Made by a program: the position numbers and the translations under genes. A DNA stretch of 24,000 nucleotides, taken from positions 1-24,000 of the forward strand of contig CAVPOO010000009.1 in the NCBI GenBank assembly GCA_963707015.1, in the 5' to 3' direction. The notes beneath the pieces were generated by a model, which was given only the letters and a program-made list of their open reading frames with translations, ran no database searches and had not been told where the DNA came from. The stretch is from an uncultured Gammaproteobacteria bacterium. Lineage in GTDB: Bacteria; Pseudomonadota; Gammaproteobacteria; Thiohalobacterales; Thiohalobacteraceae. This document shows, in pieces, positions 13 through 18,970 of the stretch (position 1 is the first letter of the stretch; the number at the start of each line of letters is the position of its first letter).

Positions 13-3000
13 GTGAAAAACCAAAGAGTAATCCAGGTCTTCGTCGGCTCACCGGGTGACGTGGCTGAGGAACGCAGGCGCGCTTTCGAAGTTATCGAAC
101 GCATCAACCGCGACGCGCTGCTGCCGCCGGGCTGGCGCTTCGAGGGGGTGGGTTGGGATCAGACGCATTACCCCAAGCTCGCCTGGCTTTCGCCGCAGGA
201 AGCGATCAATGAGGGCATCTCGCGGCCGGGCGATTGCGACATTGCCGTGTTCATATTCTGGAAACGCGTGGGTACGCCCTTGCCGCCGGGGAGGTTTACC
301 GAAAACGGCGCTGGACCGGAGGCTACCGGCAGCCTGTGGGAGTTTTACGATGCGATGGAGTCGGCCAAGAAGCCCTGGGTCTCGGTCTATCGCTGTGAGC
401 GCACGCCCGAGATGACTGAAAAAGATTTCGAAGATCCCGTCGGGTTTGGTACACAGGTTAAGGCCGTTAAGGACTTATTCCTGGGTTTTCAGGATGGCGA
501 GGGCCGGTACCGCGCCGGCTACCAGGGTTACGCCGATGCGAATGATTTCGCCCAGCACCTCGAACAGGATCTGAAGTCATTCATCAAGCGCCAGACATCG
601 CCTGAAGCCAAAGCCGCGGACACCCGCAAAGCGAAGGCCCCGCAGACGGAGCGCGTGCCTGCCGCCTATCTGCAGCGCCTCAAAGAGAGCGTTGCGCGCG
701 TCGAGCTGCTGGGCCTGGATCTCAAGGAAAGTATCACCAACGGTTTACCGCAGGTCTATGTGCCCGCAGTGACGACCAGTGCGACGGAGAAACCCGAGGC
801 TGACCAGCCGTTCGAGCGCGATCGGCGCGAGCTTATCCTGCACCGCCTGGGTGAAAGCTCGCTCTATCTGCCAGGCGATCCGGGGAGCGGTAAGTCCACC
901 TTCAGCCAGTGGGTGGCCTATGTGGTCGCTCACGGTGCCGTCCCACCGCATGAAATTCCACCGCCCGAGGAGCTGCAGGAACGGCTGCCGGACAGCCTGC
1001 TGGGCCGGCTGCCTGTCCTGATCCGGTTGCGCGATTTCTGGGGGCATATGGGTTGCGAGCCTGAGCAGGGTGACTGGCGTCAACGCGAGCTGGAGACGGC
1101 GATCGTCCATTGGCTGGACAAGACGCAACCCTTTGGTCTGACCGCAAGCAGTTTCGAACGCAATCTGGGCGAGGGCAAGCTGTTGCTGCTGCTGGACGGC
1201 GTGGACGAAGTGCCTGAGGAACACAACATCGGTGGCCGCACAGTCTATCCCCGCCATGCGCTGCTCACCGGGCTGGCCGACGCCTTGCCGCAATGGCAGC
1301 AACAAGGCAACCGCATCCTGGTTACCAGTCGGCCCTATGGCCTGCGGGCCGCCGAACGTAATCGGCTCAAGCTGCCGGAAGCCGGTTTGCTGCCGCTGGA
1401 CGAGGATCTGCAGCGCTTGTTCACGGCACGCTGGTACGCGGCTGCCGACCACGCCAATTGGGAGCGCCATGCGAACGGCCTGGCCGAGGAGTTGCGCAAT
1501 AGAGAGGAGCTCTACGAGCTCCGGCGCAATCCGCTACTGCTGACCGCGCTGTGCGTCAAGTACAAGGAGGGCAAGCGCCTGCCGCAGGATATCTACCACC
1601 TCTACGACAGCGTGGTGAATCAGGTCCTGTTCAATCGCTTCCGCGGCAGCGACCGGGAGCGTACCCGGGTACGCTGGCGGCTGGAGGCCGTGGCGCTTGG
1701 GATGCATTATGGTATTGATGACGAATCCGTGCGTCCTGCGCCGCTGGCTTCCGTCGATCTGGACGAACTGGATCGCATCCTCGCCCGCTACGCCGAACAG
1801 AACCCCGGCACCGAGGGCGGGGCCGCCCTGGTGTTGGAACGGCGCGATGAGTTGCTGGAGAGGTCCGGACTGTTACTTGCCCCGGGGCGAAAAGAAGGCC
1901 GAGTTCTATCACCAGGACTTTCGCGACTACCTGGCGGCCGAGCGCTGGGCGCGCGAGCAGCGCTCGCTGGAATCCGCGTTACAGGGCTACGGGGCGAATC
2001 GGGACTGGCGGCGTATGCTCGGTTTTCTGTTCGCCAAGGTGATCGAATCGTCGGGTGGGGTCGACCGACCGTTGCGGGCGCTGGCAGGGCTCAAGGAAAA
2101 GACGTCACGAGACGCGCTGGCAAGTGAGGCGGCCGCGGCCGTGCTGCTGGCGGATTGTCTGGAGATCGCGGCGGGGAAGGCGCGCGAAGGTGGTCTCGCT
2201 GGTGACTGGGTCGACCGCTTTCGGCGGATTTGCACAGACAGTCTGGACGTTGTGCCTGCTGCGGTCGACCGCAACGCCCTGTTTCTGGCCCTCGGCCGGC
2301 TCGGTTGGGACAACCGCCGGGTGTCGGGCTGGACGCGCAGGGCAGGCCCGGTATCGTCTGGCTACCGGTGCCGAACGAGGAGGCCCCGGGTTCTACATTG
2401 CCCAGTATCCGGTCACCCAGGCACAGTTTCAGGCCTTTATCGATGCTGAGGATGGCTATGCGGACCCGCGCTGGTGGAAAGACTTCGACGAGCGCAAGGG
2501 GAATCCATGGAAACCCACCTGGCCGGAACCGAACGCGCCGCGTACCGATGTCGACTGGTTCGAGGCGGTCGCTTTCTGTCGCTGGCTGACTCATTGCGGG
2601 CACGCCCCCACCGCTGGCTGGCAGATCCTGCTGCCCACCGACGAACAGTGGCGACAGGCCTATGTCGGTGAGGGGAAGAGCGAATTTCCCTGGACGGGGG
2701 AGCCTGACCCGAATCGACACGCCAATTATCGGGATACGGGCCTGAAACGCACCAGTGCCGTGGGGGTGTTCCCTGACGGCGTGGCCAGCTCAGGCGCTCT
2801 GGACATGGCCGGTAACGTCTGGGAGTGGTGTCTTGAAAAGTACGACTTGGACACAGGTAGGGTTGGACCTGCCATGATCGATGCGGCGAATGATCGGCGC
2901 GTGTTGCGCGGCGGGTCCTGGTCCAACGCTCCAGGCGACCTGCGTTCCGCCCCTCGCTTCGGGCGCGACCCCGTCGACCGCCGCTACTACCTCGGTTTTC

Positions 3001-3038
3001 GGTTGGTTTGCCGCCCCCCGTCTTCCACTGATCACTGA
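13..3038 (+). pseudogene. DGR target 1: NLR-like STAND protein (N-terminal TIR-like/DUF4062-like domain, NACHT P-loop NTPase, C-terminal FGE-sulfatase/C-type-lectin-fold domain carrying VR1), broken by three frameshifts
   Basis: The N-terminus VIQVFVGSPGDVAEER...DIAVFIFWKRVGTP resembles Rossmann/TIR-like domains fused to STAND NTPases (assignment from memory). Walker A is GDPGSGKST (nt 874-900) and Walker B is LLLLLDGVDEV. The NACHT-typical EFYHQDFRDYLAA motif appears only in frame 2 after ~1885. GVGLDAQGRPGIVWLPVP appears only in frame 1, and the FGE domain (FYIAQYPVTQAQF...MAGNVWEW...RGGSW...GFRLVCRP) only in frame 3, ending at the stop at 3036-3038. The GTG start at 13 is uncertain because the frame is open to the window edge. 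Confidence 0.8.
2904..3019 (+). repeat. DGR variable repeat VR1 (3' end of target 1)
   Basis: Colinear with the reverse complement of 8452-8568. By hand alignment, 21 of 29 TR adenines in the central tract are substituted and no C/G/T positions in that tract are changed. The A-free 3' segment TCGGTTTTCGGTTGGTTTGCCGCCC is identical to TR. Confidence 0.9.
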
Positions 3039-3061
3039 ATCCTGAGTGCTGTTCACTGATC
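3030..3061. other. Imperfect hairpin just downstream of VR1 (GATCACTGAA / 12-nt loop / TTCACTGATC, one C-C mismatch), conserved downstream of VR2 at 8720-8751
   Basis: The arm sequences are identical at both VR flanks and the loops differ at 3 positions. The hairpin overlaps the target 1 stop and the RT stop codon. Confidence 0.35.
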
Positions 3062-3508
3062 GGCCGCGCGCTTGTTGCGTGCGGCCAGGCGCTGGAAAAC
3101 GGTCTTTCGCAGTCCCCAGGTGTCCGCAAACCGGACGTGGTTTACCCAGCCGCTCACTGACGCATCAAGTTCTGCAAAGGTAATTTGCCCCTCGTGCCAG
3201 GCGTCGTAGCGTTGCGCCAGATGGCGGGTCGCATACCGTGCCTTGCGCGCCTTGAGTTTGCGGTGGTCGGGATAGACCACAAAGCCCAACCAGGGCGTCC
3301 CGCAGCCGGTTGGCGCGACCTGGCAGGCGGACTGATGAATGCTCAGTCGATAGCGTGCGAGGCGATCGATGAGGGCTTCTTTCCAGTACCATAGCTGCGT
3401 CTTATCGTCACTGAAAAGCGCGAAGTCATCGACGTAACGCAGGTATGCGCTACAGCCCAGCTCGCGTTTCACGAAGTGATCGAACGGGTCGAGATAGCAG
3501 TTCGACCA
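3053..3508 (-). pseudogene. DGR reverse transcriptase, C-terminal fragment (palm YxDD motif plus thumb)
   Basis: Translation is WSNCYLDPFDHFVKRELGCSAYLRYVDDFALFSDD... through to the stop at 3053-3055. It joins in frame to the N-terminal fragment at 7275-7898 once 3772 nt are removed. Confidence 0.88.
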
Positions 3509-3528
3509 ATATGGCGTGCACTTCATAT

Positions 3529-3564
3529 TGGTCGGTATGTTGGGTTTATGAATATGTGGCGTAC
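3529..3564. repeat. Left terminal inverted repeat of the RIT-like element
   Basis: TGGTCGGTATGTTGGGTTTATGAATATGTGGCGTAC is the reverse complement of 7245-7280 with one mismatch. Confidence 0.9.
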
Positions 3565-3680
3565 GCTACCCATAGACGGCAGCATGCCTTGGGAGATCAA
3601 GTCGTTTTACTTGTGAAGCCGATTGGTTGACTCGACATATTGCTGCCACCTTTTGAACGGTGAACGCGAAGGAGGGCAGT

Positions 3681-4925
3681 ATGCCAAAGACTTACTTCAA
3701 GTCCGCCCCTACAGGGCCACACTCTGACACTGAAGCTGCCGGCCATTATCTGGCGGCTTTCCGACAGTGGCTTGAGCAGAGTGGTTACCGGCCGGAAACG
3801 ATACGCGGCCGCTTGCGCGGAGCAGCTCAGTTTGTCACCTGGGCCGAGGGGAGCGGCGAGGCGCTCGCGCAGTTTGACGAGGTGCTCCTTAGCGCCTTCG
3901 GACGATACTTGGCCCACCGCGGCCAGTTGCAGTACCCAAACGGTATCCGCACGGTTCGATTCCTGGGGGCTCGGCTCTTTGTCACGTTCTTAGCCGCGCA
4001 GGGGATCACGCCACCGTCGAGCAAGGTTTCGGCCACCCCCTCAATGCCTGGACTACTTGTCAAATTTTGCCACTGGATGCGGACGCAGCGCGGTGTGAGT
4101 GAGCCGACGCTTAGCAACTACACCCCCATCCTGCGGGACTTGCTGGAGACCCTCGGTGACCAAGCCGAGCTGTTCACGGCAAAGCGACTGCGCGAGTTTG
4201 TCCTAAATCACGTACATCGCCATGGCAAAGGCCGAGCGAAGGCGGTAGTCACAGCGGTGCGCATGTTTGCTCGCTTTCTAGGCGTCATCGGCTGGTGCGA
4301 GCCAGGATTGGAGCACGCGATTCCCACCATTGCGGAATGGCGCCTGCGGTCATTGCCGCGTTATCTGCCCACGGCGACGGTCGAGCACATCATTGCCGCT
4401 TGTGACGACACAACGCCTCAGGGTGTCCGCGACAAGGCGATGATCCTGCTGATGGCAAGGCTTGGTTTGAGGGCAGGTGATGTGGCGGGGCTGCGCTTTA
4501 CTGATCTGGACTGGCAAGACGGCACGCTGATGGTCATGGGTAAGAATCGCCGTCAGACACGACTGCCACTGCCGCAAGAGGTCGGCGATGCCCTGCTGCA
4601 CTATCTGGAATCGGCACGGCCAACAACGCCGTGCAAGCACGTGTTTATCACTGCCCGAGCCCCGCTGAAGCCTGTCACCAGACAGGCTGTCGGTCGCACG
4701 GCTGCCCGGGCGATCCAACGCGCTGGCATCGATGCGCCGTCGCTTGGCTCCCATGTCTTGCGCCACTCGGCGGCTACCACCATGCTCCGCCAAGGCGTTT
4801 CCCTGCAAGCAATTGGTGAAGTGTTGCGCCATGCCTCGCCAGAGACCACTGCCCACTACGCTAAAGTCGACCAAGCGCTGCTCAGGCAAGTGGTTGTACC
4901 CTGGCCGGAGGTGACGTCATGTTAA
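3681..4925 (+). CDS. Tyrosine recombinase/integrase, first gene of the trio (RitA position)
   Basis: An AAGGAGGG RBS sits before ATG 3681. Motifs are RLGLRAGDVAGLRFTDLDW and SHVLRHSAATTMLRQG...LRHASPETTAHYAKVD (R..HxxR..Y catalytic signature). Confidence 0.85.
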   Translation: MPKTYFKSAPTGPHSDTEAAGHYLAAFRQWLEQSGYRPETIRGRLRGAAQFVTWAEGSGEALAQFDEVLLSAFGRYLAHRGQLQYPNGIRTVRFLGARLFVTFLAAQGITPPSSKVSATPSMPGLLVKFCHWMRTQRGVSEPTLSNYTPILRDLLETLGDQAELFTAKRLREFVLNHVHRHGKGRAKAVVTAVRMFARFLGVIGWCEPGLEHAIPTIAEWRLRSLPRYLPTATVEHIIAACDDTTPQGVRDKAMILLMARLGLRAGDVAGLRFTDLDWQDGTLMVMGKNRRQTRLPLPQEVGDALLHYLESARPTTPCKHVFITARAPLKPVTRQAVGRTAARAIQRAGIDAPSLGSHVLRHSAATTMLRQGVSLQAIGEVLRHASPETTAHYAKVDQALLRQVVVPWPEVTSC

Positions 4926-5830
4926 TGCAAGCGGTTGAGACCTATCTGGCGGTGCGCCGTGCCGCTGACTTCGAACTCGAGGCGGCGGAGCGGTACTTGC
5001 GGGACTTTGCCCGCTTTGCCGGCGTCCACGGGGACCGCCACGTTTCCGCGAAAACGGCGATCGCGTGGGCCGGACTGGGCTCCTCGGAGATGCAGCGCGG
5101 CAACCGCTTACAGATAGTGATTCGCTTTGCGCGTTTTGCCCACTCCGATGACCCTCGCCACGAAATTCCGCCAGCACGCGTGTTCTGTCGGCGCTACTGT
5201 CGGCCGACGCCCTATATCTTCAGCCGATCAGAAATCGAGACGCTGCTAATCCAGGCCACGCGCTTGGGTTCACCCGGATCTTTTCGCTCGCACATGTACA
5301 CGATCCTTTTCAGTCTGCTGGTTGTTACCGGATTGCGGATCTCCGAGGCCTTGGCTTTGCGCTTCCAAGATGTGACCGAGGATGGTTTGGTGATTCGGCA
5401 GACCAAATTCCGTAAGAGCCGACTCGTGCCGGTGCATGAGACCACCGCTGCCGCGCTTCAGCGCTACTTGGTCAAACGAAACGAGGTGGCGCTTGATGAC
5501 GACCACCTGTTCGTCTCTCGGCAGCGCCACCCATTGAGTCACCACACCGTCCGAAAGACTTTCTATCAACTGTTAGCGGCTGCTGCCATTCCCCGCCGGC
5601 CAGGGGGTCCGCACCCACGGCTAATGGACTTTCGTCATACGTTTGCGACAAACGCGCTAATGACTTGTCCCGATGACCGGGACGCCATTCGCTCCCACAT
5701 GCTGGCGCTAAGCACTTACATGGGGCATGCCCGTGTCAAAAACACCTTCTGGTATCTGCAGAGTACGCCGCAGCTGCTGGGCGATATTGCCAGCGCTTGC
5801 GAGGACCGCCTCGGGAGGACCGACTCATGA
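4919..5830 (+). CDS. Tyrosine recombinase/integrase, second gene of the trio (RitB position)
   Basis: Motifs are VTGLRISEALALRFQDV, DFRHTFATNAL and YMGHARVKNTFWYL. The start codon overlaps the upstream stop. Confidence 0.85.
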   Translation: MLMQAVETYLAVRRAADFELEAAERYLRDFARFAGVHGDRHVSAKTAIAWAGLGSSEMQRGNRLQIVIRFARFAHSDDPRHEIPPARVFCRRYCRPTPYIFSRSEIETLLIQATRLGSPGSFRSHMYTILFSLLVVTGLRISEALALRFQDVTEDGLVIRQTKFRKSRLVPVHETTAAALQRYLVKRNEVALDDDHLFVSRQRHPLSHHTVRKTFYQLLAAAAIPRRPGGPHPRLMDFRHTFATNALMTCPDDRDAIRSHMLALSTYMGHARVKNTFWYLQSTPQLLGDIASACEDRLGRTDS

Positions 5831-7200
5831 CATCGATCGCACCGCACATTTCCGCATTTCTACGCGAGCACCTCCCTGTGCAACAGGGGGCAAGCGCACA
5901 CACTTGTGATAGCTACGCCTATGCGTTTCAGCTGCTGTTTGAATACACCAGCCAGCGCTATCAGGTCACGCCCTCAGCGTTGTACCTGGAGCAAATCGAC
6001 GCCCCGTTGGTGATGGATTTTCTGCACTACCTCGAAACCGAGCGACACAACAGCCCCCAGACCCGAAATGCGCGCTTGGTAGCGATCAAATCCTTCATGC
6101 GCTTTATCGAGCATCGGGTGCCCGCACTGCTAGAACACAGCCGGCGTGTGCTTGCCATTCCTATGAAGCGGACCGATACACGCTTGGTGAATTACTTGTC
6201 GGCGGGGGAAATGCAGGCGATTCTGAACGCGCCCGATCTCCAGAGGCGGGACGGCATCCGCGATCGCGCCATGCTCCATCTCTGCTTTGCCGCCGCTCTG
6301 CGTGTGTCAGAGTTGGTCAGTTTGCAGCTGCCCGCTGTAGAGCTCCATCCAACACCGCTTGTCCGGGTGCAGGGGAAAGGCCGCAGAGAGCGCGCACTTC
6401 CGCTATGGAAACAAACGGCCGTTGATCTGAGCGCCTGGCTGGCGGTGCGCGGCGATGCACCGACACCCGAGCTTTTTCTCAACGCACGTGGTTTGCCGAT
6501 AACCCGCTTCGGCTTCGAGTACATCCTGCGTAAACACGTCCGGGCGGCAGCAATGGGTTGCCCCTCGCTCAACAACAAGCGTATCTCTCCCCACGTGTTG
6601 AGACACTATGTGGCCTCCCGGACTATGTGGGGTAAAGTCTTCACATTCGACGGCAATTCGCAGAATTTCAGTGGATTACCTCTGCAAGCGATGCGTGTGT
6701 AGACGACATAAATTGGTGCGTTTCTCGAGCGCTTCTTCGACACTTGCCCACCGCCCGGAAAGAAGTGAGGTCCAATAGATACGAGATTCATAGGGTTCTG
6801 GACCATCGGCCCTTGTCATCTCGGTGCAACCCTCGGCTTTGTGTCTTCCGAAACAGCGCCGGACTATGTCGCTGCCGCCGAGCGCATTCAGCGGAAAAAC
6901 AGGGTCTGAAACGAAGTACGCTACATAGTCCGGGAGGCCACATAGTGTCTCCTATGTAGCCGGCTACATAGGCGCCACTCAAGCGCCATGCTGGTGCTGC
7001 AGGCCACAGGAGATCTCCGCAAGGTTTCGCTCTGGTTGGGACATGCCAGTATGCAAACTACGGAGATCTACTTGCGTGCAGATCCCACAGAGAAACTTAA
7101 CGCCATTGAAGCGGTACTACCACCGACGCTCAGACGAGGTAAATTCCGGCCACCGGATAAGCTGATCGCCAGCCTAAGGGGGGACACCGAAATATGTTGA
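5827..7200 (+). pseudogene. Tyrosine recombinase, third gene of the trio (RitC position), interrupted by a 372-bp insertion
   Basis: The N-terminal part ends ...ISPHVL at 6600. The C-terminal part resumes at 6973 in the same frame (RHSSAMLVLQATGDLRKVSLWLGHASMQTTEIYLRAD). The intervening 6601-6972 contains stop codons. Removing it gives a 333-aa protein. Confidence 0.85.
6601..6972. mobile_element. MITE-like non-autonomous insertion with 28-bp perfect terminal inverted repeats plus an adjacent 22-bp perfect palindrome
   Basis: AGACACTATGTGGCCTCCCGGACTATGT (6601-6628) is the exact reverse complement of 6923-6950. CCTATGTAGCCGGCTACATAGG (6951-6972) is self-complementary. No convincing ORF lies inside, and the element splits the recombinase HVLRH box. 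Confidence 0.7.
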
Positions 7201-7244
7201 GTCATCGGAGCCGAAATCCCACTGAAACCGGCTCGAACAACAAT

Positions 7245-7280
7245 GTACACCACATATTCATAAACCCAACATACCGACCA
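7245..7280. repeat. Right terminal inverted repeat of the RIT-like element
   Basis: GTACACCACATATTCATAAACCCAACATACCGACCA is the reverse complement of 3529-3564. Confidence 0.9.
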
Positions 7281-7898
7281 GAACTGAGAGGTGAGGTTTC
7301 CGATCGGCAGGCCGCGCGGTCGACACGCGGCCAACAGGTCATCGCCCGGGAACCACCGCATTCGATACTCCTGCTCCAATACACCCTGACCGGATGCGAC
7401 GATTTTTTCAATCAGTGGCGCGACGGAAGCGTCCGGCAGCCTGCGGGTCAGCGTTCGCAGCAGGATCTCGTGGTCGATCGCGGCGAAGTGCTGAACGACG
7501 TCGGCGCGCAGCACATAGGGATAGCGCTGCGCGAAGCGCTGAAATCGATCGATTGCGCGGTGCGTTCCTTTACCGCACCGGTTGGCGAAGCTGTCGTCAA
7601 TGAAGCCGCGTTCGAACAAGGGTTCGATCACGTTACACAGCGCGTGGTGCACCACCCGATCGCGAAACGGTGCGGCGCTGATCTTGCGCCGTTTCGGCTC
7701 CTGAATATGGAAGTGCTTATACCCGCCGGGTAGATAAGTACCGGTTTCCAGTTCAGCCTGCAGGACAAGCAGCTCATCGGCGAGCCTCGCCTCCAGCCGT
7801 GCGGTGCTCGATTTGCCGCGTTTCCCCTTTGCGGCCTTGCGAAAAGCCAGCAGCAGGTTGTCCCATTGAATGACTTGATGCAACAGGGAGTCTGTCAT
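7275..7898 (-). pseudogene. DGR reverse transcriptase, N-terminal fragment (RT motifs 1-4)
   Basis: Translation is MTDSLLHQVIQWDNLLLAFRKA...KRRKISAAPFRDRVVHHAL...LRADVVQHFAAIDH...RGLPIGNLTSQFWS. The (I/L)GxxxSQ motif is the DGR-clade hallmark. The ORF then reads into the RIT inverted repeat. Confidence 0.9.
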
Positions 7899-8259
7899 GG
7901 CCGAGCCACTCGTAATTCAAAGCCGAATGTTCGATCTGTTGGTGTGGTTGTTACCCAAAGCGGAGCAATTCCCCAAGGCCTACCGATTCACGCTGACCCA
8001 CAGACTAATGAATGCCGCCCTGGATCTTCAGGATGCCCTGGCCGAGGCGGAGACCAGCCGTGGCCAAGTCAGGCGTCGGGCGCTGTCAGCCGCGGACCGG
8101 CATCTTGCCCGATTACGGATCTACTTGCGGCTGGCACACCATTGGCAGTGGCTGAGCAGTGGTCAGTATGAACACGTCAGCCGTATGGTGCTGGAAATCG
8201 GGCGCTTGCTCGGCGGCTGGCTGAGAGCCGAGCAGCGGGGGATGGGCGGCTCCGGGTAA
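7897..8259 (+). CDS. avd: Avd-like accessory variability determinant (four-helix-bundle, 23S rRNA IVS protein family)
   Basis: The 120-aa product has ...LLPKAEQFPKAYRFTLTHRL...ADRHLARLRIYLRLAH...LEIGRLLGGWLR, which resembles the bAvd pattern. Its ATG overlaps the RT ATG head-to-head (CATG at 7896-7899). Confidence 0.8.
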   Translation: MAEPLVIQSRMFDLLVWLLPKAEQFPKAYRFTLTHRLMNAALDLQDALAEAETSRGQVRRRALSAADRHLARLRIYLRLAHHWQWLSSGQYEHVSRMVLEIGRLLGGWLRAEQRGMGGSG

Positions 8260-8451
8260 ACAGGACCGAGGGAGCCGCCCGCTTTGCTATGCGCCCGAGG
8301 CAGAACCTGCGGACGGGACACGCCTGCGCCATCTTTCATGATGCCTGCCTCGGCCCGCAACCCGTGAGCGGCGGACATTACCGGAAGCTGTACAGGCTCG
8401 TAAGTCCGTACAGCCCGCCCTGCGATAGGCTGCAGGGCCAGGTGGCGATAG

Positions 8452-8568
8452 ATGTGGGCGGCAAACCAACCGAAAACCGATGTTGTTGTTGCGGTTGTCG
8501 GGGTTGTTCCTGTTGCGATTGGCGGAACGCAGGTTGTCTGGATTGTTGTTCCAGGACCCGCCGCGCAA
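8452..8568 (-). repeat. DGR template repeat (TR)
   Basis: The minus strand reads ...[37 protein letters not shown] with 29 adenines, mostly in AAC codons, in the central tract. It is colinear with VR1 and VR2, and all tract differences fall at these adenines. Confidence 0.9.
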
Positions 8569-8663
8569 AACGCGTCGTGCCAAAAACCAGGCGGCCCCAC
8601 GGTAGGCCCCATCAATGAGGCTTTCCGCGCCATGATGTTGCCGTAGTTTGGCTGATGAGTAAA

Positions 8664-8699
8664 CCAAAAAAATCGCGAGCGGGGCGCTGCGCGCCCCGC
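8664..8699 (-). terminator. Rho-independent-type terminator between target 2/VR2 and TR
   Basis: The GC hairpin GCGGGGCGC-(GCA)-GCGCCCCGC is followed on the minus strand by TCGCGATTTTTTT. Confidence 0.6.
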
Positions 8700-8742
8700 C
8701 ACACGCCGCTGCCGCGGCGTATCAGTGAACAGCAACCAGGGT

Positions 8743-11501
8743 TCAGTGATCAATGGAAGAATGGGGGCGGCAAACCAACCGAAAACCGATGAAGCTGCCG
8801 CGGACGCCGGGGTAGTCCCCGCCGCGAGCGGCGGAACGCAGGAGGTCTGGATCGCCTTCCAGGACCCGCCGCGCCAAACGCGTCGGTCGCAATCGCCGCT
8901 GTCTTCCTCCAGCCAGGCGCGCCCATCCTCGGGTGCATCGGTATAGCTTTCGTGCCAGCAGTCCTCGACCCATTCCCAGACATTGCCCGCCATGTCGTGG
9001 AGGCCGAAGTCATTGGGCGGTGTTTTTCCCACCGGCCAAGTGCGACCTCCACTGTTGTCTGAAAACCACGCGTAATTCTCGGCGGCCGCTTCATCGTTGC
9101 CCCAGTACCAAGGTGTCTCGCTTCTGGCACGCGCGGCGTACTCCCATTCGGCCTCGCTCGGCAGACCGCAGGTGAGCCCGTCGGTTGGGTCTGACAGCGC
9201 TTGTGCATAGGCGCGTGCCTCATCCCAACTCACATTGATGACAGGGCGGTCGCCGCGACCCCAGTTCTCGTCCTCTGGCAGGCGTTCACCTTTGCTGAGC
9301 GCATAGGCATCATATTGGGCGAAGGTGACCTCGTGTTTTGAGATGTAGAATTCCTGCAGGCAGACCTCGTGCGGTGGCTCTTCATCCGGGGCACCGCTAC
9401 CTTTCGGCGAGCCCATTTGGAAGCAGTCGGAAGCTTTGTCAGGGGGAAGCTTGACGAGCGTCGGCCTATCCGGCCAATCGACCAAAAGGCGCCAGTGGAC
9501 GATCACTGTGGACCAATCCGCCTCAGCCGTCGTTGCGTCCCCCTGACGGCGTTTCAGCCACAACGCCCCTTCGGCAAGGAACCCGCCCACCAGCAGCACC
9601 AGCGCCAGCAAGAAGACAGTCAAGCGCAGGTTGCGTTTCTTTTGCGACACGCTGGCATCGAGATAGGCCAGGGTCTCGCTATCAGCTCCGGGACGGTGCG
9701 CCGCGAACTTGCGCAGTTCGCGGCCACGGGCCAGCGGGACGGTGTCCGGGTCCTTATGCCAGGCGCTGGCCTGTTGCTCCAGGCGGGTGCGGGTTGCCAG
9801 GAAATCTGTGTGCTCGATCCGCTTCCAGAGCGTCGGCCAGTAGGGTTCGCCTTTGGGATTGGTACGCAAAAGGGTTTCATGGATCAGGTCCACCTGGTCG
9901 TCGTCCCGGTTCTCGGACTCCGCGGGCGAGATCAGCACCAGGCGCACCGGAGCGCTTTCCTGCGCGCTCTCCTCCGGACCCGGGTGCCCGGAAAGTCGTT
10001 CCAGTATGGCCTCGCCGGGCTCACCGCCACCGGCGCTGGCTACCGCCTGGCGCCGGCTGATGCTGCGGCGGGCGTTGACGGTGTTGATGCCCGGCTCCAC
10101 CAGGGCTAGCAGCAGCCGCAGCGCTGGTTCCTTGCTTTGGTCACCGAGCCGTACCAGCAGACTGTCGGCGCTGCTGGCGAGTGCGCCACCCAGGCCGCCG
10201 ACCGTCTTGTAACGGGCGCGCTGCAGCACGCCGTCCGTGCCGGCGTCGTCGCACAGCAGGCGTAACAGGTTACTGACCAGCGGCAGTGCACCCGGCTCGT
10301 TACGGGCTTCGTCGATGATGTCCTCGGACAGTTGATCATCGCTGTACCGCAGGCCGGCCAGTTCCACGCTGCGCAGCACGATATCGCGCAGGCCGGCCTC
10401 GGTCACGGGCAGCAACTCATAATGGGCAGCGTTGTTGCGCCGTGCGTTCAAGCCGGGTGCGGTCTCGAACTGGCCGAGGAAATCGCTGCGCAGGGTGGTG
10501 ACGAGGTACAGGGGAAGATCATGGTTGTCGATCGCCTCGGCCAGGAGCTGATCGAAGCGTTGCCGCTCGGCTACCTTGTCACGGGTCAGGGTGAAAAGCT
10601 CCTCCAGCTGGTCCACGACCAGCAGCGGGAGCTGTTTCCGGCCTGCCGGCACGCATTCGGCGAACAGATGGGCGAGGCGAAAGTCCGTGTCACGCAGGCG
10701 CTGTTCGATACGCTCCGTCGGTTGCTTGCAGGCTCTGGCCAGGACCGCTGCCAGAGCGAAGAGGGGCGAGCGGCCGGGACGCATGACGCCCAACACCCGC
10801 AGACTTACATCAGTCGCCCCGAGATCGAGCCAGCCATTTTCGAGCGCCGGGATCAAACCGGCCCGGAGCAGGGATGACTTGCCCACACCGCTGTTGCCCT
10901 CGATGCGCAGCCAGCGAATCCGCCCGCCGTCGGCCTGCCGCTGGCTGAACTTGTCCAGCGCCGCGAGCAGATCGGTATGGCGACCGAAGAAAAAGGCCTG
11001 GTGCTCGCGCTCGAACGGTGCAAGACCGGGGAACGGACAGCGCCCCAGCTCGGGTGGCAGTTGCGGCTTACGGTATTCGCGGAACAGATCGGTGCGCAGC
11101 GCCGTGGCCAGCGAGGCGATCTGTGCGGCGTCTCGCGCGTCCTCGAGGCGATGGAACTGGAACAGGCTCAGGAAGGGCGGAACCCGATCATCGGGCGTAT
11201 CGTCCAGCAACACCGGGACGATCGGCAGGCGTGCCCTGGCGCTGCGGCTGAAGTGCCGCGACAAGGCTACACCGACTTCCGCCTGTATCCAGCCCGACAC
11301 GCCCTGCTGGCCGATCAGGACCAGGAAGGCCGCGCAATCTTTCAACTTGGCCTGCAGGACATCCTGCCACTGCGGCCCCAGCGGGATGTCGGCATCCCAC
11401 CACACGGTAAGGCCCGCGCCCTGCAGCGACTCGACAATGGCAGCCGTTGTGCCCTTATCGGCGTGGGCGTAGCTGACGAAGATGCTCGGTGGGGCCGACA
11501 T
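8743..11501 (-). CDS. DGR target 2: TIR domain + P-loop STAND NTPase + single transmembrane helix + FGE-sulfatase/C-type-lectin-fold domain carrying VR2 (frameshifted within VR2)
   Basis: The TIR domain reads IFVSYAHADK...WWDADIPLG...AAFLVLIG. Walker A is EGNSGVGKSS (nt 10875-10898) and Walker B is LLVVDQLEE. The TM helix LRLTVFLLALVLLVGGFLAEGALWL lies at nt 9555-9629. The FGE domain reads FQMGSP...HEVTFAQYDAY...MAGNVWEWVED...RGGSW. After the 1-nt deletion the proper C-terminus [32 protein letters not shown] lies in another frame and ends at 8743. Confidence 0.85.
8761..8876 (-). repeat. DGR variable repeat VR2 (3' end of target 2), with a 1-nt deletion relative to TR
   Basis: By hand alignment, 20 of 29 TR adenines are substituted. 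One base, the C of the first AAC codon, is missing between 8856 and 8857. The IMH-like A-free segment is identical to TR. Confidence 0.9.
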
Positions 11502-12124: not shown

Positions 12125-13138
12125 TTAGCCGAAGGCGCGTGTCACGTCGAACGCCTCCTGTCGCTTGAGCATGTGGTAGCAGGCCCGAGCCAGCTTGTTG
12201 GCGACCGCCTTCTTGGCAACCAGAATGTGGCTTTTTGCCTGCTTACGCTGGTAGTAACGTTTGATCTGTGGACTCCAGATGGCGCCATAATGCGCAGCCT
12301 CCATAAAGGCCCAGGCCAGGTATTTGTTGCCGTTCTTCTTGTTGCCCTGGCCCTTGTACTTGCCGTTGCTAAGTTTCTCGGATTTCACACAACGGGCATA
12401 GGAGGTATAGTGGCCGGGACTGGCAAAGCGTTGGATCGTGCCGGTCTCCAGGGCGATGGTGGATCCCAGGGCGGGGCCCACGCCCGGGATGCTTTGCAGC
12501 AAGCGGTAGCCCTCGCGTGGCGTGAGCTGTTTCTGGAGTTCACGCTCAATCTGGGTAATCGCCTCATCCAGCCAACGCCGGGCCTGGTGCGTAATCTGGC
12601 CACCCAGCAAAATAGGCGCTTCCAGGTAAGTCGCCAGCTGATCGCTCTCGAGCTTTTTGAGCGCATTGGCGCTCAGTCGCACGCCGCTATGGCGCGCAAT
12701 CAAACTTTGCAGGCTCATGTGATGCAGGGTCTTCTGCCTCACCAGCAGCAAACGTCGACGCAGCAAGTCACGCAGTGCACGTTCTTCCTTTGGATAGATA
12801 TACCCGGTCGGCAGAATGCCCAGTCGCAACAGATGGGCTAACTGCCGTGCATCCGAGAAGTCGTTGCTATACTTCAGTCCCGCATACTGGGGCATCGCGC
12901 CCGTATGCGCTAAGTGCACCTGGAAACCGGCGTCCATCAGCCCATCCACCAGCCAATACCAGTTATACGTGGACTCCACCACACACCCCGCCAACTCCGC
13001 CTGATACGTTCGCAACACGCCAATAATTATCGCCAGATCATTGGGTAACCGCTTCTCGTAGATCGTATTATCGTTCTCATCCAATATCGCAACCACGCTA
13101 TTATTGGAATGTAAGTCGATTCCGCAATACAGTGTCAT
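12125..13138 (-). CDS. IS110-family transposase (DEDD recombinase)
   Basis: The product runs from MTLYCGIDLHSNN at the N-terminus to ...LQSIPGVGPALGSTIALETG...RFASPGHYTSYARC...GNKYLAWAF..., the typical IS110/IS1111 family layout. The ORF is an intact 337 aa with an AAGGAG RBS. Confidence 0.9.
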   Translation of the reverse strand: MTLYCGIDLHSNNSVVAILDENDNTIYEKRLPNDLAIIIGVLRTYQAELAGCVVESTYNWYWLVDGLMDAGFQVHLAHTGAMPQYAGLKYSNDFSDARQLAHLLRLGILPTGYIYPKEERALRDLLRRRLLLVRQKTLHHMSLQSLIARHSGVRLSANALKKLESDQLATYLEAPILLGGQITHQARRWLDEAITQIERELQKQLTPREGYRLLQSIPGVGPALGSTIALETGTIQRFASPGHYTSYARCVKSEKLSNGKYKGQGNKKNGNKYLAWAFMEAAHYGAIWSPQIKRYYQRKQAKSHILVAKKAVANKLARACYHMLKRQEAFDVTRAFG

Positions 13139-13141
13139 TGT

Positions 13142-13206
13142 CGTCTCCTTTATCGGTGGTTCGTTTTGGTTTGCACTTCAACGAATACCACCTGATCTAG
13201 GAGACG
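13142..13206 (-). promoter_or_regulatory. Structured leader upstream of the IS110 transposase that pairs with the RBS
   Basis: CGTCTCCT (13142-13149) pairs with AGGAGACG (13199-13206), and GGTGGT (13155-13160) pairs with ACCACC (13187-13192). On the minus strand the AAGGAG RBS lies inside the outer stem. Confidence 0.35.
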
Positions 13207-13259
13207 GCTAGAGGATTATCAGAGGGGAATGGCCTTACTTGGGCGGCTCCCTAATCAAT

Positions 13260-13388
13260 GTAGGGTGGGTTAGGCACGCCGTTTGTGCCGTAACCCACCG
13301 GATGTGCCGGCAGGCACTCATTAAAAAATGCGTTGTGTTGCTCTGCAACGCCTGGTGGGTTACGCAAAAAGCGCCAACTCGCCCTTAC
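13260..13388. repeat. REP/MITE-like ~129-bp element, copy a
   Basis: The sequence is GTAGGGTGGGTTAGGCACGCC...GCCGTAACCCACCGG...CGCCTGGTGGGTTACGCAAAAAGCGCCAACTCGCCCTTAC. It is near-identical to 18971-19099 and its ends are inverted (GTAGGGTGGGTTAG / CTAACCCACCCTAC-like). Confidence 0.8.
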
Positions 13389-13490
13389 ACTTCGACTGAA
13401 GTGAGAAAATAAAAATGGATACCAGCGAGTAGTTCTGTTGCCCGATGGAGAAACCATCCAGAACCCCTTCTCTGGTAGACGGTTCAAACG

Positions 13491-13823
13491 ATGAAGGTGA
13501 AGTACTTCGAAGACACCGATACGCCGTACATTGAGCTCCGTGATCGTGACATTGCCGAATCGAAGGATGAGGAGCCGCTTGAGATGTTTCGGGACCTGAA
13601 GCAGAAGTACGGCGAATGGGTTCTCGACGTGCTCGAATATGACTGGGCGGACAATCTGCTGAAGGTGTTGGACGAGGCAGTCGTCAGGCGTGCTCTTGAG
13701 CAGGGTCAAGAGCGTCTGCTCAGGAAGGCTGAGGGGATACGGAAACGCTGCAGATCGATGCCGCATAGCGGCGAGGCCTCGTTCCTGTCATTAGCATGCG
13801 CGTCCTGGCAATGTACGGAATGA
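13491..13823 (+). CDS. Small hypothetical protein with a DUF2283-like N-terminus (possibly a remnant)
   Basis: MKVKYFEDTDTPYIELRDRDIAESKDEE resembles the DUF2283 start MK..YD.E.D.LYI.L. The remainder is unrecognisable and no clear RBS is present. Confidence 0.3.
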   Translation: MKVKYFEDTDTPYIELRDRDIAESKDEEPLEMFRDLKQKYGEWVLDVLEYDWADNLLKVLDEAVVRRALEQGQERLLRKAEGIRKRCRSMPHSGEASFLSLACASWQCTE

Positions 13824-14337
13824 CTTCGGTCTTCGCTGTTGGCAGCCGAGAATGCACGAGTGTGGGATGGCAAGGCCGTGTTTGCAGTCAGCGAGGCAAG
13901 CGGAAAGGTGTGGAAGCGTCGGTGGCTGGAGCGGCAGGTCGGTGCTCGTGTGCGGGCTGGTCAGTCGAGGCATGGCCGCATGATTAGCTAAGTAATTGCC
14001 CGTATAGATTTTCAGACAAACGTGGTCTAAATATTTCGGACTAATCACAGTCATTTTAGACCAGAACAAATAAGGAGTTGTTGTCCTGAGAGGGAGCTCA
14101 GAATGGTCAACCTGACACCTGTCTCCCGAGTAATACGGTACAGCTTCTTCCGTGCAAGCGATCAGCGGTCTCACAGTGGCATCGGGACTGTATCCGATGT
14201 CTGAGACGGCTGGTGCATGGCCCTGCGGTTAGCGGTTTCTTGTTCGACCTTACCGGAAGTTCGCTTTTAGATTGTCCTTTGCAAACTGCCACCCATGCGA
14301 CGCGACGAGACTGGTATGGGCCTGAACAGTCTGAAAG

Positions 14338-14544
14338 TGCGGCCTGTTTTTGCGGAAGATCGTTGGCTGGGCGCTGGAAAGTCATATGCCGGAGAGTCTG
14401 ATTCTGGAGGCGCTCGGCATGGCCGTTTCACGCTGGGAGATAAAGCGCGGCACCTTGATCCATTCAGACAGAGGCGCACAGTATCGTGGTAACGAGTTGC
14501 GAGATAGATACGAACTATGTGGGGTCTATTCATTTGCCCTCTAA
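14338..14544 (+). pseudogene. IS3-family transposase (OrfB integrase core) remnant
   Basis: FLRKIVGWALESHMPESLILEALGMAVSRWEIKRGTLIHSDRGAQY matches the IS3 OrfB region around the second catalytic D. It is truncated on both sides. Confidence 0.6.
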
Positions 14545-14871
14545 CCTTGGCCGCTGTGCACCCGCAGCCTGCGTCGCAACAGCTGTACGAAACGAGGTGT
14601 GTGTATCTTATCGGGGGAGGATCACTTGGGGGGTGAACCATGCCAAGTAGCAAAGGCAGAGCGGATGCCAACCCGCGGACGGCCGCCACGCCAGGCAAGG
14701 CGGCGGGCGACCCGCCGGTACTGTACGTCCACGGCACAGGCGACCAGCCGCCACGCGATGTTCGGAAGACCGTAGTCACGCGGTATAGCGCAACCGCGGG
14801 GACAAGCCGTTGGCGGTGCCAGCCCAGACTGGATTTTATGATGAAGTCAACTCAATCAAAGGAGAGATTAC

Positions 14872-16329
14872 ATGGCTAACAATCATCACGGCATGCTTCC
14901 CTTCAAGGGACTCGGACACTTATGCACAGTGAGTCCGTTTCGCGCGGGTCGTTTTGCCCGTCTGTTTCCAGACTTACCCCCGTTGTATATCGATCCACTG
15001 ATCCTGCATGAGCTCGGTAAGGCGGGCGGTAAAATGGAGGACAAAGGCGCGCCCAATCTCACCAACAACACGCCCACGGGTATGGTCTTCTTTGGGCAAT
15101 TCATCGACCATGACATTACGCTCGACGATAGTTCATCGCTAACAGCCTCCAATGATCCGGCGAGCACAGAAAATGTGCGCACACCGACCCTCGACCTTGA
15201 TTGTGTATATGGCGATGGTCCGGGGGCGCATCCCTACCTTTATGATGGCGCTGGAAAGCTGTTAACCGGCAACGACTACCCGGCGTCACTTATTCCGAAC
15301 TGGCAAAATCAGGATGACCTGCCGAGAACGCCAAAAGGTACAGCGATCATAGGTGACCCGCGCAACGACGAAAACCGCGTTATCTCGCAGCTGCAACTCG
15401 GGGTCTTGCGGTTTCACAATACAGTCGTGGACTTGCTATCTGCAAAGCCAAACCCTCCCTCCGGCTCACAGCTCTTCGAGGAAGCCCGTCAGATCGTAAC
15501 CTGGCATTATCAATGGATTGTGGTAAACGATTTTCTGCGGACGATGTGCGGAAACTGGGTTGTTGACGATATCTTCGCGAATGGCAGAAAGGTATACCGA
15601 CCCGAGTGCATGGGAATCAACGAACCCTTTATTCCCATCGAGTTTGCCACAGCGGTCTATCGCTTCGGCCATACGATGGTTCCTCAGAAATTCAGCGTGA
15701 AGCCAGGCCAGCCAAAACATGACGTATTCGGCTCGACGCTGGGAATCGGATTCAAGCCCGTAACCAGCAGTGACGAGGTTGTGGACTGGGCGGCGCTGCT
15801 GGATAGCGGTAATGGCCAATACGAGCGGGCCGGCAGAATGGACGTGAAACTGGCCAAGCTGCTTCTCGATCTGCCTTTCATGCCCCCGACGGTCCCGGCA
15901 TTTGAACGGTCTCTCGCAGTACGCAACCTGCTCAGGGCACAAAGCTTCCTGATTCCTTCCGGCGAGCAGATTGCGTCCGCCATGATGGCTGCTGGTGCGG
16001 ACGAGATTACTTCGGAGATGATCTCAACAGTTCGTGACGCCGGTGCAAAACTGGGCCTGCCCAAGGCAACCCCGCTATGGCTTTATATCCTTGCTGAAGG
16101 CAAAGCCGTTGGACGCATGGATGAAACCGCACAAGGTCAAAAGAAATTTGCCAAAGGCGAAGGGTTGGGACCGGTCGGCGCGCGTTTTGTAGCAGAGGTC
16201 ATCATCGGGCTTCTCGAACTTGATACGCGCTCTTTCATGGGTTCCAATCGCAATTGGTCGCCGGCCGATGAAGCGGATCTGTTCGGAGGAACCAGCGTAA
16301 CCACGCTCTATCAGCTTCTGACGGCATAA
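14872..16329 (+). CDS. Heme peroxidase (animal-type peroxidase/cyclooxygenase superfamily)
   Basis: Motifs are FFGQFIDHDIT, GDPRNDENRVISQLQL..FHN and AVYRFGHTMV. An AAGGAGAG RBS is present. Confidence 0.85.
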   Translation: MANNHHGMLPFKGLGHLCTVSPFRAGRFARLFPDLPPLYIDPLILHELGKAGGKMEDKGAPNLTNNTPTGMVFFGQFIDHDITLDDSSSLTASNDPASTENVRTPTLDLDCVYGDGPGAHPYLYDGAGKLLTGNDYPASLIPNWQNQDDLPRTPKGTAIIGDPRNDENRVISQLQLGVLRFHNTVVDLLSAKPNPPSGSQLFEEARQIVTWHYQWIVVNDFLRTMCGNWVVDDIFANGRKVYRPECMGINEPFIPIEFATAVYRFGHTMVPQKFSVKPGQPKHDVFGSTLGIGFKPVTSSDEVVDWAALLDSGNGQYERAGRMDVKLAKLLLDLPFMPPTVPAFERSLAVRNLLRAQSFLIPSGEQIASAMMAAGADEITSEMISTVRDAGAKLGLPKATPLWLYILAEGKAVGRMDETAQGQKKFAKGEGLGPVGARFVAEVIIGLLELDTRSFMGSNRNWSPADEADLFGGTSVTTLYQLLTA

Positions 16330-16358
16330 CGCGGCTAACCGCCCAACCAGGCGCTCAA

Positions 16359-16389
16359 CCGGACCTGCGTAAAAGCGGCGCAGGTCCGG
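16359..16389 (+). terminator. 11-bp perfect stem-loop downstream of the peroxidase gene (no U tract)
   Basis: The hairpin is CCGGACCTGCG-(9 nt)-CGCAGGTCCGG. Confidence 0.35.
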
Positions 16390-16513
16390 TCAGCGCCAAG
16401 TTGCGCGGCGCCGAGCCGTACGTGCGCGCGCTATGCTGACAAGGAGGGACGACACGTTTTTTCTGCGGGGACCGGCAAAAGGGAGCGGAGGGAATAGCGA
16501 GGGAAATCAAGCC

Positions 16514-17299
16514 ATGGTTTACCAGACGCCCGGTGTATACATACAGGAGATTTCTGCTTCTCCAGCTTCGGTCGTAGAGGTCGAAACGGCGATTCCCGCC
16601 TTTATCGGTTATACCGAAAAGGCGGAGGAGAATGGGGAGGATCTGACTAACAAACCCAAACGTATCAAGACCCTGGTCGAGTTCGAACAGTTGTTCGGTG
16701 GCCCGGCCCGCCCGAAGACACTCAGGGTGCGGCTCGATGCCGCCAACAGGCCTGACAGGGTGACCGTCGAGCATCACTACGTCTGGAAGGCACCGGCAAA
16801 TATAAGCCTGAATTCGGTCATCTCCCCGACGGTACCCATCAGTGATGCGGACCAACAGAGCCTCAACGTGGATGTGAATGCGGGAAAGTCCATCAACGCG
16901 ATACGCACCATTCCTGGCCGCGGTACGCTCATCTGGGGTGCGCGGACCCTGGCGGGTAACGACAACGAGTGGCGTTATGTCGCGGTGAGGCGTTTCTTCA
17001 ACATGGTGGAAGCGTCTGTCAAGAAATCCACCGCCTGGGTGGTGTTTGAGCCCAACGCGGCACCGCTCTGGACCAAGGTCAAGCACATGATTGAGAACTA
17101 CCTGATCCAGAAATGGCGCGAGGGTGCTCTGATGGGTGCCAAGGCGGAGCATGCCTTCTTCGTGAACATCGGTCTGGGTCAGACCATGACCGCCCAGGAT
17201 ATTGCTGAGGGGCGGATGATAGTGGAGATCGGCATGGCCGCGGTGCGACCGGCCGAATTCATCATCCTGAAGCTCATACACAAGATGCAGAAGTCCTGA
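16514..17299 (+). CDS. Contractile tail sheath family protein, unusually short (261 aa), without neighbouring tail genes
   Basis: The N-terminus MVYQTPGVYIQEISASPASVVEVETAIPAFIGYTEKA and the C-terminus RGTLIWGARTLAGNDNEWRYVAVRRFFNMVEASV...RMIVEIGMAAVRPAEFIILKL are typical sheath N- and C-terminal motifs. Confidence 0.75.
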   Translation: MVYQTPGVYIQEISASPASVVEVETAIPAFIGYTEKAEENGEDLTNKPKRIKTLVEFEQLFGGPARPKTLRVRLDAANRPDRVTVEHHYVWKAPANISLNSVISPTVPISDADQQSLNVDVNAGKSINAIRTIPGRGTLIWGARTLAGNDNEWRYVAVRRFFNMVEASVKKSTAWVVFEPNAAPLWTKVKHMIENYLIQKWREGALMGAKAEHAFFVNIGLGQTMTAQDIAEGRMIVEIGMAAVRPAEFIILKLIHKMQKS

Positions 17300-17357
17300 C
17301 CGGCAGAGTACGAGGGGCAGTGGGAAGCCGCCTGCTGGCGAAGGGATCACAGGGCAC

Positions 17358-17388
17358 TTATGAATAACGTGAGAAGCATCGGGCATAA
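17358..17388 (+). repeat. 31-nt copy of the start of the psiE-like gene (direct repeat of 22517-22547)
   Basis: TTATGAATAACGTGAGAAGCATCGGGCATAA compares with TTATGAATAACGTGAGAAGCATCGGACATAA, a single mismatch. Confidence 0.8.
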
Positions 17389-17412
17389 TAGTCCCTCCGT
17401 CTCCTTTTCACG

Positions 17413-17460
17413 GCTTCGCACCGCCTGGTGGGTTACGCAAAAAACCCTAACTCACCCTAC
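17413..17460. repeat. REP/MITE-like element, partial copy b (right half only)
   Basis: GCTTCGCACCGCCTGGTGGGTTACGCAAAAAACCCTAACTCACCCTAC matches the right halves of copies a and c. Confidence 0.75.
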
Positions 17461-17543
17461 ATTTCGACTTAAGTCAGTGGCATTCGGGGCGGAGGGAATA
17501 AGTCATAAGCCTCTGTCCTTTTTTTAGTTCAAGGAGGTAGGCA

Positions 17544-18926: not shown

Positions 18927-18970
18927 CATGCTGCGGCACGGCTTTTGTGCCGGTGTGAACCACGATCGAG

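Follow-up and report, generated by a model that had tools for sequence, protein, structure and literature searches.

In the diversity-generating retroelement (DGR) of Bordetella phage BPP-1 (Mtd/bRT/bAvd), a reverse transcriptase (RT) and the accessory protein Avd are combined with a template repeat (TR), adenine-specific mutagenesis, and a variable repeat (VR) at the 3' end of the gene for a C-type-lectin-fold protein. Cellular systems with the same kind of machinery have been described in two studies. Kaur et al. 2021 in eLife (PMC8195603) identified STAND-FGS proteins, in which N-terminal TIR, DRHyd, or EAD domains precede a NACHT or nSTAND1 NTPase and a sensor with the FGE-sulfatase fold. 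These proteins neighbor a DGR RT and a four-helix accessory gene, occur in several copies per organism with distinct NTPases and effectors, and were proposed as analogues of hypermutating immune receptors (PMC8195603). Doré et al. 2024 in PNAS (PMC10907252) then described clade 5D DGRs of Thiohalocapsa PB-PSB1 (DGR 3 and DGR 6) and of other multicellular bacteria. In these loci, one TR serves two targets, each a STAND NTPase (NACHT or nSTAND1) with a single C-type lectin (CLec) domain and some with TIR N termini, with one target predicted to be cytoplasmic and the other periplasmic; transposon-interrupted RTs, MITE-like inserts (MITE, miniature inverted-repeat transposable element), and 'degenerate' loci were also reported (PMC10907252). 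Here, we describe a DGR cassette that fills the first 11.5 kb of a 24,000-nucleotide stretch from an uncultured gammaproteobacterium (contig CAVPOO010000009.1; the whole stretch is referred to as the window) and that carries two STAND targets, Target 1 and Target 2.

One effector family that bears on this cassette has been characterized separately. DUF4062 has been shown experimentally to be a TIR-like, glutamate-dependent NADase effector, and one preprint renames it 'NIR' (10.64898/2026.05.01.722283, 10.64898/2026.09.04.749371). In these preprints, NADase activity was shown for PsAvs2, Swarozyc, Vulcan, Vesta, and TEP1, with the catalytic glutamate at E97 in KpSwz, E108 in PsAvs2, and E98 in Vulcan, and the main texts of both make no mention of DGR, FGE, or lectin. 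Kaur et al. 2021 use neither the DUF4062 name nor its NADase chemistry (PMC8195603), and Doré et al. 2024 leave the N-terminal extensions of DGR 3-type targets unassigned, with DUF4062 absent from their text and supplements (PMC10907252).

Our analyses favor, with a probability of roughly 0.72, reading the locus as a DGR cassette, now decayed, with two STAND targets bearing putative NADase domains and working through a tripartite effector-switch-sensor arrangement. The cassette is ordered Target 1, RT, avd, TR, and Target 2, with the following features.

13-3038, plus strand: Target 1 gene, with open reading frames (ORFs) in three frames; repaired product of 1008 aa with a DUF4062-like domain, NACHT, and FGE-sulfatase/CLec
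25-612, plus strand: putative DUF4062-type (TIR-like, 'NIR') N-terminal domain of Target 1, residues ~5-200, with candidate catalytic glutamate E110 (TGSLWEF)
850-1437, plus strand: NACHT NTPase core of Target 1 (Pfam NACHT)
2895-3018, plus strand: VR1, at the 3' end of Target 1 within the FGE-sulfatase fold (~2379-3020); an inverted repeat with the TR
3053-3505, minus strand: C-terminal part of the RT, from SNCYLD onward and including YVDD (RVT_1 profile positions 123-193)
3529-7280, plus strand: mobile element splitting the RT, resembling recombinase-in-trio (RIT) elements, with 36-nt terminal inverted repeats at 3529-3564 and 7245-7280
3660-4925, 4919-5830, and 5797-~6609 resuming at ~6970-7200: tyrosine recombinase genes of the RIT-like element (Phage_integrase matches)
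6600-6951, no strand: MITE-like insert of 352 bp lying inside the third recombinase gene and bearing inverted repeats of 35 nt at its termini
7278-7898, minus strand: N-terminal part of the RT, ending in ...NLTSQFW (RVT_1 profile positions 8-106)
7897-8259, plus strand: avd, encoding the DGR accessory protein of 120 aa (NCBIfam DivGenRetAVD and Pfam bAvd)
8454-8577, minus strand: TR, rich in Asn codons
8678-8700, minus strand: terminator-like hairpin with a 10-bp stem (nine G-C pairs) followed by a T-run, between the true stop of Target 2 and the TR
8743-11501, minus strand: Target 2 gene; repaired product of 919 aa with TIR_2, nSTAND1, a transmembrane helix, and FGE-sulfatase/CLec
11483-11118, minus strand: TIR_2 of Target 2, carrying E75
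11036-9750, minus strand: nSTAND1 of Target 2, with Walker A K208
9629-9561, minus strand: transmembrane helix of Target 2, residues 625-647
9422-~8771, minus strand: FGE-sulfatase/CLec of Target 2 (Pfam)
8757-8877, minus strand: VR2 of Target 2, differing from the TR by 23 A-site substitutions and the loss of one base

A single repeat family was found by repeat analysis to join 8452-8577 to 8761-8854 and, in inverted orientation, to 2895-3068. In the aligned core, VR1 differed from the TR by 24 mismatches, 23 of which fell at TR adenines. Since adenine occupies only 31 of the 124 aligned TR positions, this bias has a binomial P of 2.6e-13. The VR2 core likewise carried 23 A-site changes, and because the two VRs also differed from each other at most A sites, both were diversified in the past. 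Both VRs span the last ~40 codons of their targets, inside the FGE-sulfatase/C-type-lectin fold. Two genes have thus received copies of a single TR, with errors specific to adenines, over their final ~120 nt. An Asn-codon-rich TR, as found here, is typical of DGR design. When the two RT halves were rejoined at ...NLTSQFW/SNCYLD..., a 357-aa protein resulted that shared 66% identity end to end, over 332 aa, with the intact 334-aa RT of a homologous locus (L011). Avd is intact and matched both NCBIfam NF033474 (DivGenRetAVD), with a score of 88.1 bits (cutoff 80), and Pfam bAvd, with an E of 3.5e-20. With its A-biased TR and VRs, an adjoining, although interrupted, DGR-type RT, Avd, and a VR at the 3' end of a gene for a C-type-lectin-fold target, the cassette has the makeup of a DGR.

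We also observed two peculiarities of this machinery. The avd gene (plus strand) and the RT gene (minus strand) are divergent, with start codons that overlap by two bases (7896-7899), which is an unusual DGR layout. In addition, ~50 nt of common sequence that is not in the TR follows both VRs on the 3' side (3019-3068 and 8713-8755) and contains an imperfect stem, TGATCACTGAA...TTCACTGAT. The stem may be a homing signal, but its folding energy did not improve on that of shuffled controls, and we do not propose a conserved hairpin at this position.

The domain calls made for both targets in an earlier note on this DNA were borne out by profile hidden Markov model searches, with TIR_2, NACHT, nSTAND1, and FGE-sulfatase all above Pfam thresholds. 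For Target 2, we detected TIR_2 (E 9e-19, 68.6-69.3 bits against a cutoff of 28), nSTAND1 (E 7e-72, 243.5 bits), and FGE-sulfatase, the last with an E of 1.8e-43 in the ORF as listed and 1.4e-51 once the gene was repaired. The NTPase retains both a Walker A motif (GNSGVGKSS, K208) and a Walker B motif (LLVVDQLEE). The TIR domain aligned with bacterial TIR structures, with E75 falling on the WxxxE glutamate of AbTIR (chains 7uwg and 8g83), which we take to be the catalytic residue of AbTIR. A single strongly hydrophobic helix (residues 625-647) lies between the NTPase and the lectin fold, and Target 2 has no signal peptide. Target 1 contains NACHT (33.7 bits against a Pfam cutoff of 26.7) and FGE-sulfatase (Pfam E ~3e-37 to 3.7e-37), along with Walker A (GDPGSGKST, residues 288-296, K294) and Walker B (LLLLDGVDE, from residue 391) motifs, and has no transmembrane segment.

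The N terminus of Target 1, which the earlier note had called DUF4062-like, was assigned through its relatives. The domain matched the N terminus of the PADLOC defense candidate PDC-S60 (E 4e-11). A profile built from the 15 closest relatives of the domain matched 10,698 cluster representatives at an E of ≤1e-3. Among 41 top matches that were sampled, DUF4062 was present in 17 (best E 2.7e-22), nSTAND1 in 29, NACHT in 11, and FGE-sulfatase in 23, with WD40, HEAT, GAF, or histidine-kinase C termini in the rest. Moreover, some proteins matching the profile at E <1e-55 exceeded the cutoff of the Pfam DUF4062 model over the equivalent region (26.5 bits for P0050 and 29.2 bits for P0052). In both of these proteins, the DUF4062 model spans the first ~108 residues and ends at SGTEWE[YF], which aligns with TGSLWEF of Target 1, and E110 within this motif was invariant across every alignment that we made. 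An AlphaFold2 model of the domain (predicted local distance difference test score of 87) has an alternating beta/alpha fold. On the strength of profile transitivity and the conserved glutamate, rather than of structure comparison, the assignment of a DUF4062-type domain to Target 1 holds at the level of sequence, and we infer from position and motif that E110 is the equivalent of the catalytic glutamate in the DUF4062 preprints. We detected no similarity between the N-terminal domain of Target 1 and the TIR domain of Target 2 in a profile-sequence comparison, and by sequence the two belong to different families.

Both targets thus have an N-terminal NADase-type domain with the conserved glutamate of its family, a central NTPase, and a C-terminal FGE-sulfatase/C-type-lectin fold holding the VR. 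These are the domain orders that the earlier note had proposed as effector, NTPase switch, and diversified sensor, and they match those of Kaur et al. 2021 and Doré et al. 2024. By analogy with characterized Avs, TIR, and DUF4062 systems, binding of a ligand by the diversified tip of the lectin fold would free the NTPase to oligomerize, an NTP-dependent step taken from the Avs and NLR literature that Doré et al. 2024 cite (PMC10907252), and oligomerization would cluster the N-terminal domains, leading to NAD+ hydrolysis and growth arrest of the invaded cell. Lacking a transmembrane segment, Target 1 would act and sense in the cytoplasm. The sensor of Target 2 is predicted to face the periplasm, as the protein lacks a signal peptide and has one transmembrane helix after the NTPase, which would place the lectin fold in the periplasm. 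A bolder form of this model, which we consider unlikely as it stands, is that one TR programs a matched NAD+-depleting pair, one cytoplasmic and one facing the periplasm, that surveys two compartments, with the repeated and independent inactivation of this locus and its relatives (by RT insertions and by frameshifts, one of which lies inside a VR) reflecting selection against autoimmune specificities or self-inflicted damage from error-prone homing.

The same domain architecture could instead serve communication, with the diversified STAND proteins being signaling or kin-recognition receptors for regulatory tuning or for allorecognition in aggregating bacteria, and with NAD+ cleavage acting as a signal rather than causing death. 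Vallota-Eastman et al. 2020 (PMC7517822) argue that cyanobacterial DGR targets tune regulation, Doré et al. raise a kin-recognition alternative modeled on fungal HET NLRs (PMC10907252), and the predicted periplasm-facing sensor of Target 2 would suit cell-cell or environmental ligands. However, the tested bacterial members of both N-terminal domain families act in abortive-infection defense, the N-terminal domain of Target 1 matches a PADLOC defense candidate, and no downstream signaling partner is encoded in the window. We consider a signaling or kin-recognition role to be quite improbable relative to growth arrest of an invaded cell through NAD+ depletion.

The copy of the cassette in this genome is decaying, with a split RT, three frameshifts in Target 1, and one base lost in VR2. 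The RT gene is interrupted by a 3.75-kb RIT-like element positioned precisely between ...QFW and SNCYL..., and this copy therefore cannot yield the RT protein. At its termini, the element has 36-nt inverted repeats that are 97% complementary, and the three tyrosine recombinase genes that they bound are adjacent, overlapping, and in the same orientation, which is the arrangement that defines the RIT family (PMC3414803). The element has itself been disrupted: the third recombinase gene contains the MITE-like insert, whose 35-nt inverted repeats are 94% complementary (a 25-mer is present exactly twice, with 0 expected), and translation beyond the insert recovered the catalytic C terminus of the recombinase, revealing an insertion within an insertion. 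We also noted an imperfect palindrome (3503-3534) across the left junction of the RIT-like element.

Target 1 is split over four frame segments by three 1-nt indels (+1 near 1873-1888, -1 at ~2317, and -1 at ~2391). The stitched 1008-aa product was colinear with an intact 998-aa relative (P0021; 54% identity over 1011 columns), and three JGI metagenome relatives with 83% nucleotide identity to Target 1 were in frame at all three indel sites. The protein collection contained the read-through ORF of Target 2 and lacked a Target 1 product, an absence that would fit annotation of Target 1 as a pseudogene. In Target 2, VR2 has a 1-nt deletion at ~8858, such that GGAACAAC of the TR corresponds to GGAAGGC in VR2. 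Because of this deletion, the listed ORF of 1112 aa reads out of frame over the terminator-like hairpin and the TR to 8163. The true Target 2 is ~919 aa in length and ends near 8743, with a repaired C terminus that parallels that of Target 1.

A contig assembled separately from a different sample (L012; ERZ28668914, 5.7 kb) was 99.5% identical to the window, with 28 substitutions and no gaps. This contig carries the same VR2 deletion and encodes the same 1112-aa read-through, indicating that the deletion is real. The sole difference within VR2 between the two assemblies was at a non-A site, with all A sites identical, so VR2 is not being rewritten. Of the 28 substitutions, 15 lay in the 363-bp avd gene (5018-5350 of L012), compared with a single one in the Target 2 gene of 3.3 kb. 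This avd excess could stem from selection that is relaxed or diversifying, or from recombination with a paralogous avd.

The cassette is thus no longer diversifying, unless an intact RT is present elsewhere in the genome, and it is probably no longer signaling, unless intact paralogues exist elsewhere. The earlier note, in which the lectin sensors would be somatically diversifiable, overstated the functional state of the locus: as assembled, it cannot diversify and neither target is intact.

Several points weigh against parts of this interpretation. Compared directly with Pfam DUF4062 (PF13271), the N-terminal domain of Target 1 scored 12.1 bits (E 0.24; residues 8-89), below the cutoff of 24.7. 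A Foldseek search of the PDB with the domain model returned only weak Rossmann-like matches (best E 1.2e-3), with nucleoside 2'-deoxyribosyltransferase at an E of 3.6e-3 and no TIR chain among the 50 PDB matches listed. NADase activity, oligomerization, and ligand sensing are all transferred by analogy from other families. No PADLOC Avs or bNACHT model matched Target 1 or Target 2; PADLOC matches were limited to PDC-S60 for the N-terminal domain of Target 1 and weak TIR-type models for Target 2 (E up to 0.1). For this reason, we describe the targets as Avs- or NLR-like in their proposed working and not as members of these families. With regard to decay, the genome could hold another, intact RT that serves the TR and VRs in trans, as Doré et al. 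2024 propose for degenerate loci (PMC10907252). Furthermore, the heptamer CCCCGGG occurs only twice in the 24-kb window (1880 and 2384), both times at a frameshift site of Target 1. The frameshifts of Target 1, two of which are these sites, may therefore be assembly errors, and the coincidence could reflect either systematic sequencing error or a slippage hotspot. We sought a second assembly of Target 1 and found none, the JGI matches being relatives with 83% identity.

An alternative is that the cassette is fully functional, with its disruptions being sequencing or assembly artifacts or belonging to minority strains, and with intact genes coexisting in the population and an active DGR. The heptamer coincidence speaks for this reading. 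Doré et al. observed strains with an intact RT beside transposon-interrupted ones at DGR 3 of PB-PSB1 (PMC10907252). Yet the VR2 deletion was reproduced without gaps in a separate sample 28 substitutions apart, the RIT-like insertion is bounded by clean inverted repeats of 36 nt and contains a nested insert, other long ORFs of the window are rich in G/C runs and free of frameshifts, and VR2 lacked any A-site difference between the two assemblies. These findings leave a functional, actively diversifying cassette with little probability. The least probable alternative is that the N-terminal domains are noncatalytic adaptor or oligomerization modules, like many TIRs, that recruit an effector encoded elsewhere: the Swarozyc preprint found human NWD1, NWD2, and NPHP3 to lack NADase activity with only TEP1 active, and Kaur et al. 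describe many NTPase-FGS systems with adaptor (EAD) domains (PMC8195603), but the glutamate needed for catalysis is conserved in both families here (E110 and E75) and the window holds no partner gene with a matching domain. We therefore retain the reading of a decayed DGR cassette whose two STAND targets would have coupled a diversified lectin-fold sensor to NAD+ hydrolysis.

Related loci were examined for the same design. The search for a homologous locus with an intact RT, which the earlier note had suggested, succeeded with L011. This locus is intact in design: an orthologue of Target 1 is followed by a TR, Avd, and an uninterrupted RT, and then by a second target, of the NACHT-FGE type and encoded on the opposite strand. 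Both of its VRs match one TR. L011 also contains a second RT gene (RT genes at 648-1850 and 6721-8402, with 45% and 66% identity to the RT of the window, respectively) and a second TR-like repeat after the first RT, giving two DGRs within 11 kb. In another locus (L016), a DUF4062-nSTAND1-FGE gene (DUF4062 E 3.5e-11) adjoins a TIR_2-nSTAND1-FGE gene that has 56% identity to Target 2 and is followed by an RT, demonstrating that the pairing of DUF4062 with TIR recurs. A further observation in L016 was that 113 nt following the first target (within 9397-9699) are repeated at 88% identity after the second (13046-13180), overlapping the start of the RT ORF, which suggests a tandem duplication of a target and the 3' end of the RT. 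Proteins of ~900 aa with the TIR_2-nSTAND1-FGE architecture are numerous in metagenomes. We found no TR/VR-type repeat in flanks of up to 10 kb around distant DUF4062-nSTAND1-FGE genes on Anaerolineae and Planctomycetota contigs.

Disruption was not confined to the window. L015 (1167-5235) has a frameshift of its own and only a remnant of an RT, two relatives of Target 2 (P0284 and P0286) are truncated at ~residue 345, and a relative of Target 1 (P0001; L009, 10001-10966) has an internal deletion through which the Walker A region runs directly into the FGE fold. Such loci appear to decay commonly.

Beyond the cassette, the window contains an intact IS110-family transposase gene (12125-13138, minus strand; Pfam DEDD_Tnp_IS110 and Transposase_20) located ~620 bp upstream of where Target 2 starts. 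This gene is context lying outside the system, and it was also found on the separately assembled L012. Neighboring genes with no apparent relation to the cassette encode an animal-haem-peroxidase-like protein (14872-16329), a DUF900-type alpha/beta hydrolase (17544-18926), and a CitMHS transporter with TrkA_C domains (18977-20989). Within 13251-23483, no Pfam match was obtained for several ORFs, and Rfam and tRNA scans of the window produced no matches.

The earlier note pointed to previous work associating DGRs with STAND proteins, and both PMC8195603 and PMC10907252 bear this out. It went too far in presenting two chassis on one TR as notable, since the pattern is already documented in these papers and recurs in L016 and L011. 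The design principle itself, in which a DGR diversifies the lectin-fold sensor of a STAND NTPase, effectors are of the TIR type, and one organism has several chassis, is already published (PMC8195603, PMC10907252). The sole increment of our analysis, and an incremental one, is that the NACHT chassis has an N-terminal extension, unassigned until now, that can be attributed from its sequence relatives to DUF4062, an NADase effector family. With the design published and this copy nonfunctional as assembled, the discovery is incremental. Among bacterial systems, STAND receptors diversified by DGRs are the best candidates for a repertoire of receptors made by targeted hypermutation on an innate-immunity scaffold. 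The putative DUF4062 assignment supplies a concrete and assayable output, NAD+ depletion, for reconstitution, and the locus further illustrates how often mobile elements and indels silence such systems, a point relevant to whether they are costly to keep.

Compared with known systems, the cassette shares with the BPP-1 DGR the RT, Avd, and TR, adenine-specific changes, and a VR in a C-type-lectin fold. In contrast to BPP-1, a phage element with a tail-fiber target, the cassette described here is cellular, it acts on intracellular or membrane STAND receptors encoded on opposite strands, and its avd is divergent from the RT gene. Relative to the NTPase-FGS systems of Kaur et al., the architecture is the same; theirs is a comparative-genomics survey, whereas the window provides one degenerate instance. 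The clade 5D loci of Doré et al. resemble the cassette in having two STAND targets per TR, two predicted compartments, and decay, but the insertion in the RT is here a three-recombinase element and not an insertion sequence. We considered whether the window is itself a Thiohalocapsa PB-PSB1 locus and rejected this, as the nine published PB-PSB1 TRs include no match to the TR of the window and peptide strings of the RT are absent from the supplements. Because the TRs differ, the window is not among the nine loci of Doré et al. and comes from a different organism. Finally, PsAvs2 resembles Target 1, with its putative DUF4062-type domain, in combining an N-terminal DUF4062 with a conserved catalytic glutamate, a STAND NTPase, and a C-terminal sensor. 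PsAvs2, Swarozyc, Vulcan, and Vesta recognize phage terminase or portal through fixed sensors consisting of TPR, HEAT, or auxiliary domains, whereas the corresponding position in the cassette is occupied by a lectin fold that a DGR can rewrite.

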